Part shown: positions 14,310 to 58,850 of the stretch, one piece after another
Numbering within the stretch: position 1 is the first letter of the stretch
Layout: every line of letters starts with the position of its first letter
Origin: Octopus vulgaris
Taxonomy: Eukaryota
Length of the DNA: 64,000 nt
Assembly (NCBI GenBank): GCA_951406725.2
Contig: OX597815.1
Span: forward strand, 150,784,001-150,848,000
Direction of reading: 5' to 3'
Position numbers and translations under genes: made by a program
The notes under the pieces: model-generated
Databases searched by the model: none
Seen by the model: only the letters and a program-made list of their open reading frames with translations
What the model was told of the DNA's origin: nothing

Positions 14310-14660
14310 TTAATAAATAAAACATATGCATATATACATACATATATGTACGTACCTACATCTATATGTATATATACATGCATATATGGGTACAGGACAC
14401 CAAAAAAACGTCGAACACAATGAGAAACGAAAACATAAACACAAAACCAAGAAAATGGACATTTTTCTTAAACAACGAAAAGATAGAGTACAAGACATGC
14501 AACACAAGGAAAATTCCCCTTCTTCAGCCGCCTCTGTTTCATCTACTCCGCGGTTCGAAGGTAAAGGCGAGACACGACTTCATGGAAACAGTCCTTCCCG
14601 CAAAAGCAGATTAAATAAAATTTGCGATTTTTTTACGGAGGGTTAAAAATGGTAACATAT
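14310..14660 (-). mobile_element. Repeat family B (paralog of 54415-54885), probable PLE 3' end carrying a permuted HHR motif
   Basis: About 340 bp reverse-complement homology to 54545-54885; flanked by TA-rich tracts. Confidence 0.7.
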
Positions 14661-29499: not shown

Positions 29500-29541
29500 G
29501 TACCTGAGGAGACTCAGAACGGTTCGAAACATGTACTGTAC
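29500..29541 (+). ncRNA. Degenerate minimal hammerhead-like motif followed by AATAAA
   Basis: CUGAGGA-GACUC(AGAAC)GGUUC-GAAA-CAUG-UA; stem I imperfect. Confidence 0.5.
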
Positions 29542-29702
29542 CCAATAAAGTCTGTTACATATTCCATTTCCTATTTTATTAAAAATGTTATCCCAACCGC
29601 CACTACGTAGTTCCTGCAATAAATCTACGGATAACAACAGGTAATGGAAACTGTGCCGGTGCTTTACTCATCAACTATTTATATATTTTGTAGAATGTCT
29701 CC

Positions 29703-37175: not shown

Positions 37176-37280
37176 GACACAGAAGGACCGTAATTCTTCA
37201 TCAGTTATCGACCGAAAATAGTAAAGCTCAGTTTTGTGCCTTTAACGATAAGACTGAGAACTTCGTATATCGGCGGGACC
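37176..37280 (-). ncRNA. Non-circularly permuted hammerhead-like motif (G12 mutated to A)
   Basis: CUCAG-UC-UUAUCG...GGCAC-aAAA-CUGAG...CGAUAA-CUGAUGA; stem I (6 bp) and stem III (5 bp) are perfect. Confidence 0.65.
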
Positions 37281-38415: not shown

Positions 38416-38507
38416 GGCTGGCCGTGATCTAGTAATCTCAAGATTAATCAGCCGAAATTACTACGATGATCCGGTTCTTGACTGAGGACTGAGGGTTTCG
38501 AATGTCC
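38416..38507 (+). ncRNA. Non-circularly permuted hammerhead-like motif, intact core
   Basis: GGCUG..UAGUAA-UC-UCAAGA..CAGCC-GAAA-UUACUA..UCUUGA-CUGAGGA; three perfect helices of 5-6 bp; within repeat ~38095-38580 that ends in (TA)n. Confidence 0.75.
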
Positions 38508-42015: not shown

Positions 42016-42228
42016 GTGAAATAGAAAGATGAATAATCTTGTAGTAGATTAATCAAAAGTTTAACCGATACCTTAGTAGCAAAAATCACAGCAGTAAACA
42101 GCACGGTTGGAGGTACAACCATATGGTGTTGCAACCGTGCGTTGGTGCGGATAATTGAAATTAAAACATTATTGGTGAATTGAAGAAATGGAGCTGAACG
42201 CAGATTGAACAGAAATCGTTTTATTTCA

Positions 42229-42308
42229 TTCTACACGTGTTTCGAAAGGCACAAATGACCAAATTCCGATTGAATAATGGGACCATATTGTGTCTTTCTC
42301 TTCAGGAA
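42229..42308 (-). ncRNA. Minimal type I hammerhead ribozyme in the PLE pLTR
   Basis: UUC-CUGAAGA-GAAAGACACAA...UUGUGCCUUUC-GAAA-C(ACGU)G-UA-GAA, followed by AAUAAA. Confidence 0.9.
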
Positions 42309-42902
42309 GAAAATAGGAAATCCGTTGGAAAAACAAAAACAGAACAGAGGCGGAGCAAAAACAAATCGAACTATGCTCCTAAGAGCCCATGGCGAAACTG
42401 TTTATCAGTGTATGTTGAGAACCGGTGGCTGAAGAATTTAACGGGTCAGGCATCGGTCAATCATGTGGGTGAGGGTGTGTAGGTGTTCTTTGTGACCGAG
42501 AATAAAGTTCTGACTATTTAAGGAATATTGGATGTTTTATAAGGGGCGAGAAAAAATCTACTTAGAGACGTGTGTGTGTGTATACTGTTCTATATATGTG
42601 TGTGTTGGCGTAGGGGTAGAAAACATTTTTTGTGTACGTGTGTGCGTTTGATCGTTCGGCTGTCAGTGGCTACTGCCGTCAGAACCGTTGGGCGGCAGAA
42701 AAAAAATATATATATATTATGTTTTATGTGTGTGTGTGTTCATCTAAGCCTGCCTTGTCAAGGAAACCCCCCGCTGTGAAAAAACCAAGCCCCGTTTGTC
42801 TTACAGGAGTAATTCCCCTTGCAGTGGTTAATCGTAGATATCTTAAAGGCTATTTCAGAATTTGTTACCAAGGGCTATGGGTGCCGGTATTATTTATAAA
42901 CG

Positions 42903-44381: not shown

Positions 44382-44974
44382 CGTTTATAAATAATACCGG
44401 CACCCATAGCCCTTGGTAACAAATTCTGAAATAGCCTTTAAGATATCTACGATTAGCCACTGCAAGGGGAATTACTCCTGTAAGACAAACGGGGCTTGGT
44501 TTTTTCACAGCGGGGGGTTTCCTTGACAAGGCAGGCTTAGATGAACACACACACACATAAAACATAATATATATATTTTTTTTTCTGCCACCCAACGGTT
44601 CTGACGGCAGTAGCCACTGACAGCCGAACGATCAAACGCACACACGTACACAAAAAATGTTTTCTACCCCTACGCCAACACACACATATATAGAACAGTA
44701 TACACACACACACGTCTCTAAGTAGATTTTTTCTCGCCCCTTATAAAACATCCAATATTCCTTAAATAGTCAGAACTTTATTCTCGGTCACAAAGAACAC
44801 CTACACACCCTCACCCACATGATTTACCGATGCCTGACCCGTTAAATTCTTCAGCCACCGGTTCTCAACATACACTGATAAACAGTTTCGCCATGGGCTC
44901 TTAGGAGCATAGTTCGATTTGTTTTTGCTCCGCCTCTGTTCTGTTTTTGTTTTTCCAACGGATTTCCTATTTTC

Positions 44975-45054
44975 TTCCTGAAGAGAAAGACACAATATGG
45001 TCCCATTATTCAATCGGAATTTGGTAATTTGTGCCTTTCGAAACACGTGTAGAA
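44975..45054 (+). ncRNA. Minimal type I hammerhead ribozyme (inverted arm copy)
   Basis: Same motif as 42229-42308 on the opposite strand. Confidence 0.9.
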
Positions 45055-45112
45055 TGAAATAAAACGATTTCTGTTCAATCTGCGTTCAGCTCCATTTCTT
45101 CAATTCACCAAT

Positions 45113-53779: not shown

Positions 53780-54119
53780 GTAAATATAATATCTGACAAT
53801 TGTTCGGTAGCCATGATAAAACTCCGAGTTTCGGATGTCTGGGCGAAATCCACACCGGCATCTCTTCAGTTATGGGGCCATCGAAAAAAATGCTATGAAA
53901 ATGACCGTTAAAACAAAGGGGAATTAACGGTCATTTTCATAGTATTTTTCTTTTCGATGGCCCCATAACTGAAGAGATGCCAGCGTGGGTTTCCGCTCCG
54001 ACATCCGAAACTCGGAGTTATATCATGGCTACCGAAGAATTGTCACATATATTTACAGATAAATTCCTCTATTTACATACTATCGAGGTCTCTTTCATTC
54101 TCTTGTTGTCTTGTCATTT
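53776..54119 (+). mobile_element. Fold-back PLE-like mini-element with an HHR in both arms, inserted in the (TA)n of a family 2 SINE
   Basis: Arms 53776-53911 and 53924-54060, tail to 54119; AUAA-CUGAAGA-GAUG...CAUC-c-GAAA-CUCGGAG-UU-UUAU; SINE halves at 53525-53730 and 54143-54308. Confidence 0.85.
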
Positions 54120-54600: not shown

Positions 54601-54695
54601 AGGAAGAAAAGTTTCTATCGAAGATACGTCTCGCCTTCACCTTCGAAACGTAGAGTAGATGAAACCATGGCGACTGAAGAAGGTGTTTTTTTCCT
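54601..54695 (+). ncRNA. Non-circularly permuted hammerhead-like motif, intact core (family B)
   Basis: GAAG..UACG-UC-UCGCC..CUUC-GAAA-CGUA..GGCGA-CUGAAGA; the paralog at 14507-14600 (-) shows compensatory changes. Confidence 0.75.
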
Positions 54696-58261: not shown

Positions 58262-58359
58262 TATAAATGGAACAAAAATGCAATGGAGGACAATAAAACA
58301 TTCGGATACATGGACGATACAAAGGCGGACAAGAGAAACAACAATTAGATGGACGGGCA

Positions 58360-58452
58360 AAAATTCGTGGCCTTTTTTCCTCAATCAAGTACCAGAAGTC
58401 ACGACCTTTTCGGGCAGTTACACTTAAGACGGTTCGATCTGGTTGTCCCCCA
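58360..58452 (-). ncRNA. Non-circularly permuted hammerhead-like motif, degenerate
   Basis: GGGACA-ACCAGA..ACCG-UC-UUAAGU..UGCCC-GAAA-aGGU..UCUGGU-ACUUGA-uUGAGGA; within repeat 58263-58660. Confidence 0.6.
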
Positions 58453-58850
58453 AAAAATCTAAGCTAAGAGTGTTAGACCGCTTTGTAAAAAAGCTAGTAA
58501 ATGTGTACGGAGACAAAAAAAACACGGAGAACATGGTACACAATTACGAATAAAAACAACCAGAAAATAACAAGTGTCTTTCGACTGAGAACGAATCCAG
58601 TTGAGCAGGCGTGTATGAAGTGAACGCCTAAAGGTAGGAACATAGGAGATAGACATAAGAGGTTATATATATATATATATATATATACTCGACGGGATTA
58701 TTTCAGGTTCCGTCAACTAAATCCACTCACAAAGCTTTGGTCGGCCGAACGCTATAGTAGAAGACACTTGCCCAAGGTTCCATTAAGTGGGAATTAACCC
58801 AGAACCATGTGGTTGGGAAGCAATCTTCTTACCACACAACCCCTCTTACG

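Follow-up and report, generated by a model that had tools for sequence, protein, structure and literature searches.

A candidate split hammerhead ribozyme in Octopus vulgaris repeats, with a probable link to Naiad-type PLEs

A 64-kb window of the Octopus vulgaris genome, by which we mean the whole stretch of DNA analysed (64,000 nucleotides of contig OX597815.1), contains a short segment in which the conserved pieces of a hammerhead ribozyme occur in permuted order. Could a hammerhead rearranged in this way be a ribozyme, and what kind of element carries it? A preliminary sequence-only reading had described the segment as a degenerate copy with two lesions, followed by a hairpin and lying near the 3' end of a short repeat bordered by TA-rich tracts, and had suggested a link to PLEs.

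The copy in the window and its repeat family

The motif was found where it had been reported, at 58378-58448 on the minus strand, inside a 5'-truncated copy of a repeat termed family D (Table 1). On the minus strand this copy is flanked 5' by a TA tract and 3' by a short TA tract and an unrelated repeat. The permuted order held and could be specified further, the arrangement being that of a non-circular type SGC hammerhead to which a further break, between A9 and stem II, is added. Degeneracy was evident in comparison with 29 other family D copies, and three lesions were found rather than the two proposed: C3U at 58384, a G-A mismatch in the second stem III pair (58430/58407), and an A-C mismatch in stem II (58446/58414) that is a common variant in family D. 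In addition, stem I contains one U-G wobble, and the tail of the copy carries a deletion. Stems I, II and III, with G10.1-C11.1 and A15.1-U16.1, are present in the family, and in the window copy stem II and stem III each contain a single mismatch. U3 occurs together with G8, so the segment at 58378-58448 lacks the core that a hammerhead requires, and this copy with its three lesions is probably dead. The proposed hairpin following the core is present in intact family members and partly deleted in the window copy, where it was no better than that of shuffled sequences (z 0.06); it is not common to all families.

Table 1. Parts of the motif at 58378-58448 and related loci, in window numbering
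Positions	Strand	Feature	Pairing or remark
58265..58663	-	5'-truncated family D repeat copy, ORF-less PLE-like unit	40 scored copies at 80-84% identity
58444..58448	-	Stem II 5' strand, moved to the 5' end of the motif; G10.1 is 58448	58448-58444 with 58416-58412
58438..58443	-	Bridging helix 5' strand, counterpart of the type SGC stem I-II interaction helix	58443-58438 with 58396-58391; 6/6 pairs formed in the window copy
58422..58433	-	Block S: stem III 3' strand, U16.1 (58429), C17 (58428), stem I 3' strand	58433-58429 with 58408-58404 (stem III); 58427-58422 with 58390-58385 (stem I); predicted cut between 58428 and 58427, placed by analogy
58404..58416	-	Block G: stem II 3' strand, GAAA (58411-58408), stem III 5' strand	Lesion at 58407
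58391..58396	-	Bridging helix 3' strand	
58378..58390	-	Stem I 5' strand and core 58384-58378, making up block C minus the stem II strand	
58350..58377	-	Tail past A9	Hairpin in intact family members; outside the conserved cross-family layout
38416..38488	+	Split motif, family C	Intact, young (copies 99-100% identical)
14521..14597	-	Split motif, family A	One core lesion
54603..54680	+	Split motif, second family A-type copy	
37198..37279	-	Split motif, family B	G12A lesion

About 400 nt around the motif belong to a repeat for which a first-look search of the 2.8-Gb genome gave 3387 candidates. The earlier reading had made its case depend on the family consensus, and the majority of 30 aligned family D copies indeed has an intact core and fully paired stems. 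The complete hammerhead core (C3 U4 G5 A6 N7 G8 A9, G12 A13 A14 A15.1 and U16.1 H17) is found in this majority and in the sister families, and the 18-base family D core gave 978 genome matches with at most one mismatch, compared to a single control match. Units of family D are about 740-780 nt long and ORF-less, have a fixed 3' end and variable 5' truncation, and are inserted in (TA)n, which bears out the placement of the motif near the 3' end of short TA-flanked repeats. They also occur as tandem pairs: upstream homology runs through a pyrimidine-rich stretch and a TA-rich junction into the 3' part of the preceding unit. Extension towards the 5' end, proposed as a route to the parent element, thus reached the previous tandem unit and no ORF. 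Families A, B and C are built like family D, with units of about 740-860 nt overall, and in family C as many as 6 units, each of about 850 nt, follow one another in an array. The word CACGTGAC follows the pyrimidine tract in units of families A, C and D, lies about 300-340 nt upstream of the cut in families C and D, and is possibly an internal promoter element.

A structure descriptor for the split layout found exactly five loci from four families in the window, in agreement with the earlier claim of at least five loci from four families. The same descriptor gave 5 matches in total in 12 block-shuffled windows; two of these scored as high as the window copy, which taken alone is therefore weak evidence. 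A search of the window against Rfam yielded nothing that reached gathering score, and the motif itself stayed without a match even with the limit relaxed to E 5. The window also contains a minimal classical type I hammerhead that has a palindromic stem III and ends another TA-flanked repeat (29500-29545, plus strand), a long MITE-like inverted repeat with arms of about 130 nt and TA on its flanks (53795-54060), and two near-identical segments in inverted relative orientation about 2.6 kb apart (about 42200-42500 and 44750-45100).

Pairing, abundance and topology of the split motif

Covariation was analysed in 41 copies, 30 from family D and 11 from the related C group. Paired combinations occupied 88.5% of cells, and two-sided change was seen in 14 of the 21 pairs, including three of the five in the displaced stem II helix. 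None of 500 shuffles reached the observed value, a test that is inflated by kinship among the copies and in which the structure was drawn from the same sequences, and slid controls were only 21-43% paired; the bridging helix is out of register for the C-type rows. Among 25 cluster representatives the stem sequences differ wholesale between families and still pair. A fifth helix across the A9/G10.1 gap was considered (cognate -3.34 versus -2.83, p 0.054) and dropped, being not evident in metagenomic cases.

The pattern of GAAA followed by CUGAnGA occurs 36,399 times in the genome, compared to 4,420 times for the reversed control, an eightfold excess. Of the first 30 core-pattern matches, 13 passed the full descriptor, compared to 8 of 600 with shuffled upstream DNA; several of the remaining 17 were recognised by eye as truncated or decayed members. 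Viral loci with a similar pattern gave no match to the full descriptor (0 of 120).

In the split motif the cleavage site, GAAA and CUGAnGA follow in the order S-G-C, the linker from stem I to stem II is short (5 nt in family D), and stems I and II are connected on their outer sides by a helix. Between A9 and G10.1 the chain is open, with the stem II 5' strand at the 5' end. A break within block C at this position was assumed to be impossible in the part of Eckert 2023 consulted (PMC10085705). According to the same part, in vitro cleavage is seen for hammerheads of types SGC and CSG that have the same bridging helix, type CSG was previously known from two metagenomic sequences only, and no permuted types turned up in known organisms' genomes, one bacterial GCS candidate excepted. 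The split motif shares with type SGC (HRIMA-1 and variants) the block order, the short linker, the bridging helix and the full core. Type SGC, however, has an uninterrupted block C and consists of environmental finds, whereas the split motif carries the stem II 5' strand and a bridging strand at its 5' end and is a high-copy animal repeat. We regard it as working like type SGC without filing it as such, because block C is interrupted. Its cyclic connectivity is also that of type CSG, and CSG results when the final segment of the split form is placed first; the difference is that CSG is open between blocks and the split form inside block C. The split motif is thus a further circular permutation of the SGC/CSG circle. 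We found no description of this form in the literature searched, which was mainly open-access.

The minimal type I hammerheads of PLEs occupy the same place in the same class of element, but have the circular order C-G-S and a weak, palindromic stem III that makes them dimer-dependent, as described in the consulted part of PMC4209133; the split motif has a non-circular order and a stable stem III within one unit. The same source reports that PLE hammerheads often have a tolerated unpaired base at the 5' end of stem II, so a break at this junction is plausible. Families C and D consist of ORF-less tandem units, each with a hammerhead. Known non-LTR retrozyme units are about 170-400 nt long, shorter than those of families A-D. 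Like families A-D, non-LTR retrozymes are ORF-less tandem units with a hammerhead and have been proposed to be non-autonomous PLE derivatives, but their hammerheads are of type I (bioRxiv 10.64898/2026.07.22.740005), which the S-G-C order of families A-D is not; cephalopods and permuted ribozymes go unmentioned in the part of that preprint consulted.

Elements that carry and move the motif

The consulted part of Craig et al. 2021 (PMC8557442) describes Naiads as being without canonical hammerheads, and flags 'HHR_core' and 'HHR_half_core' in some of them, including an Octopus family, with the topology left open. Family D has (TA)n targets, partial tandems and the 3' position of the motif in common with the Naiad PLEs of that source, but Naiads carry an ORF with N-terminal GIY-YIG and C-terminal RT, and the family D unit contains none. 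Partial tandems, 5' truncation, a fixed 3' end and (TA)n insertion, all seen in family D, are not diagnostic of Naiads because Neptune PLEs share these traits.

The link to Naiads was obtained from sister families. A 20-base Naiad motif of a published Octopus family gave 683 matches in the genome. When 1.5 kb downstream of Naiad RT loci was examined, the split motif was present on the same strand in 11 of the 30 best loci, 0.66-1.43 kb downstream, and in none on the other strand. A sister family with the split layout therefore sits behind a Naiad-type RT, and the suggested parentage among retroelements was not refuted. The RT shares 46% identity with a protein that has GIY-YIG at its N-terminus and RT at its C-terminus; the Naiad ORF organisation of this motif-bearing family thus includes a GIY-YIG domain seen in the homologue rather than in the own-genome copy.

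Published Naiad ends pointed in the same direction. For 53 of the 54 consensus sequences (PMC8557442) we inspected by eye at least the final 330-420 nt, and found the split form in 8 (two Octopus, three Acropora, Clytia 3, Morbakka 2 and Beroe, the last with a stem I of two pairs only), type CSG in 6, and neither in the part seen of the other 39. The six CSG cases are nematode Naiads, in which an uninterrupted type CSG motif is accompanied by the bridging helix (PMC8557442 supplement). In a metagenomic set of 80 Naiad-type loci, 69 had a tail of at least 150 nt. The split motif with unrelated stems was found in 9 of these tails, with no antisense matches and none in three shuffles; a tenth case was visible by eye. 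In a FastTree phylogeny the nine cases and two own-genome Naiad RTs fell into one clade of 28 rows (local support 99), and no motif-positive RT occurred among the other 54 Naiad-type rows. On the proposed RT phylogeny check, this tree is compatible with a common clade, and the PLEs that carry the split motif together with an ORF are Naiads. About eleven members of the 28-row clade have a tail and no motif. Judged from sequence, this distribution fits one origin of the split motif in Naiads, with losses.

Several further features of Naiad-type loci were recorded. No Naiad relatives were found in viral contigs. Rfam, applied to 40 Naiad-type loci of which four bear the motif, gave one SECIS element and no ribozyme; the SECIS element lies in a metagenomic Naiad-type tail (L604:1987-2048, plus strand). 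SECIS elements have been described for selenoprotein Naiads. Most of the Naiad-type RT proteins P0104-P0119 carry a ubiquitin C-terminal hydrolase domain (PF00443), several of them also GIY-YIG. Conserved words occur in several bivalve Naiad ends and in Morbakka Naiad-1, which we presume to resemble the permuted twister ribozyme. These ends contain no hammerhead in the part seen, and other bivalve and hemichordate Naiad ends have a different conserved, structured-looking common tail (both from the consulted part of the PMC8557442 supplement).

Taken together, we consider it probable that the window copy is a decayed and likely inactive member of an ORF-less family with a predicted self-cleaving hammerhead of split order, the family likely being a non-autonomous derivative of a Naiad-type PLE. 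A different enzyme may be responsible for its movement: with the ribozyme as described, families A-D could be retrozyme-like units moved by a young Neptune-type PLE or by a PLE clade that was not sampled. Among the PLE RTs seen, only the Neptune type was both intact and present in high copy number. Its 753-aa RT-GIY-YIG frame is intact and abundant, many copies being 98-100% identical. Family C is of the same young age, and both have (TA)n at their end. Own-genome Naiad copies, by comparison, are decayed, with next-best matches 61-83% identical and many containing stops. As family C copies are near-identical, the RT mobilising family C is probably not that Naiad family; it may be a Neptune-type enzyme or an unsampled one. 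Young Neptune-type PLEs with an upstream ORF are exemplified by L182 (G000:C18:77000200-77006500) and its relatives.

We regard this alternative as quite possible without favouring it. None of the 26 Neptune-type loci had a good-scoring, sense-linked split motif; Neptune-type PLEs were rejected as carriers, with a single low-scoring sense match in the 26 loci, and the young ones have in their tail a minimal type I-like hammerhead with a U3-A8 core variant instead. Comparison of the A-D units with these loci gave no sequence similarity beyond separate insertions, and every autonomous carrier of the split motif that was found is of Naiad type. Among the copies examined no RT was colinear upstream of any family A-D copy, and motif pieces of these families had no colinear match in 51 RT loci (150 candidates scored per search). 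A protein search of A-D loci gave three real RT matches, which either belonged to a separate insertion next to the locus or lay on the other strand; the search was mostly noise because its queries included open frames of unrelated short repeats. The alternative moreover concerns the mobilising enzyme and is compatible with a Naiad origin of the motif.

Insertion ends and predicted cleavage

Insertions were chosen by a word downstream of the core and their 5' ends were mapped relative to the predicted cut (position 0). For family C, 70 insertions were used after six downstream array members and one duplicate had been dropped. Twenty-three ends fell in 0..+19, compared to 2 in -20..-1 and 5 in +20..+39, and the strongest step over all positions was exactly at 0 (p 1e-5), where 6 ends lay. 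Four of these 6 had been shifted by eye from -3, because the TA tract extends the alignment; the unshifted counts are 19 versus 6. Family D (89 insertions, one inverted partner dropped) gave a weaker peak, with 13 ends in 0..+19 compared to 5 and 5 (p 0.048); 7 ends lay at +2 to +5, and the best step was at -8 to -6 rather than at 0.

RT stalling or TA microhomology could contribute to this pile-up. If these were its cause, the fold might be real but require an element protein or a second RNA to cleave, or serve to bind protein or stop the RT. For the single PLE that has been examined in vitro (PMC11167929, consulted in part), the Poseidon hammerhead required protein to cleave, cleavage was dispensable for insertion, RT started internally, and no RNA-seq read ended at the hammerhead cut. 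Minimal PLE hammerheads also cleave poorly in vitro (PMC4209133, consulted in part), and the linker past the cut is AT-rich. Nested folding of the motif gave only a rod of stem III and the bridging helix that was no better than shuffles, but the fold program is unable to model crossing helices. We nevertheless think it unlikely that the structure is not self-cleaving. A stall should leave ends near the structure's 3' edge, at about +30 to +50, but the observed step is at 0, and the catalytic positions and G10.1-C11.1 are kept across unrelated stems in several phyla.

It is very improbable that the order in the monomer has been misread, and that two tandem units, or splicing that joins A9 to G10.1, form an ordinary hammerhead. 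The units do occur in tandem arrays, and PLE hammerheads often act as dimers (PMC4209133, consulted in part). A dimer, however, still requires stem II right after A9, joined directly or via 1-2 nt, and the split motif lacks this connection: pairing there gave no signal (cognate -0.64 versus swapped -0.65 kcal/mol, p 0.51), and in the nine metagenomic cases at most one pair from 10.1 could form. Back-splicing across the gap was rejected because the family majorities contain no GU donor after A9. Furthermore, units are about 740-860 nt apart, whereas all four helices close within about 75 nt. The chance of a fortuitous match in repeat-rich DNA is negligible, since the score of the window copy, equalled in shuffled windows, is outweighed at the family level by the intact majority, the covariation, the eightfold genome excess and the occurrence in unrelated organisms.

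Under the preferred reading of a self-cleaving split hammerhead, the bridging helix would clamp the free stem II 5' strand beside stem I, which would allow the usual core to assemble in one unit without the A9-G10.1 bond. RNA of a tandem unit would then be cut 3' of C17. An RT acting in trans would prime at a TA-rich target, begin at the junction of units, some 140-160 nt downstream, and copy in the 5' direction. Where the template had been cut it would run off at the cut, giving short insertions that begin there; uncut or re-joined templates would give longer copies and tandem arrays. With its start about 236 nt upstream of the cut, the window copy may be such a longer product of an uncut or re-joined template, decayed since.

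With rather less confidence than in our reading of the window copy, we also favour a broader conclusion. The motif would be a hammerhead topology not described before, open at A9/G10.1, and the missing ribozyme of one Naiad clade found in ctenophores, cnidarians and cephalopods, nematode Naiads having type CSG. It would be among the most abundant ribozyme motifs of this genome, cutting germline retrotransposon RNA and leaving a footprint at the starts of insertions. If this is true, non-circularly permuted hammerheads go from a few hundred environmental RNAs to animal genomes with tens of thousands of copies, and a hammerhead block that was held to be indivisible can be split. It would also give the reason why descriptors and Rfam miss the hammerheads of Naiads, a dominant invertebrate retrotransposon clade, and the statement that Naiads are without hammerheads would need revision. 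The pile-up of insertion ends at the predicted cut would provide a direct handle on in vivo template cleavage by PLE hammerheads.
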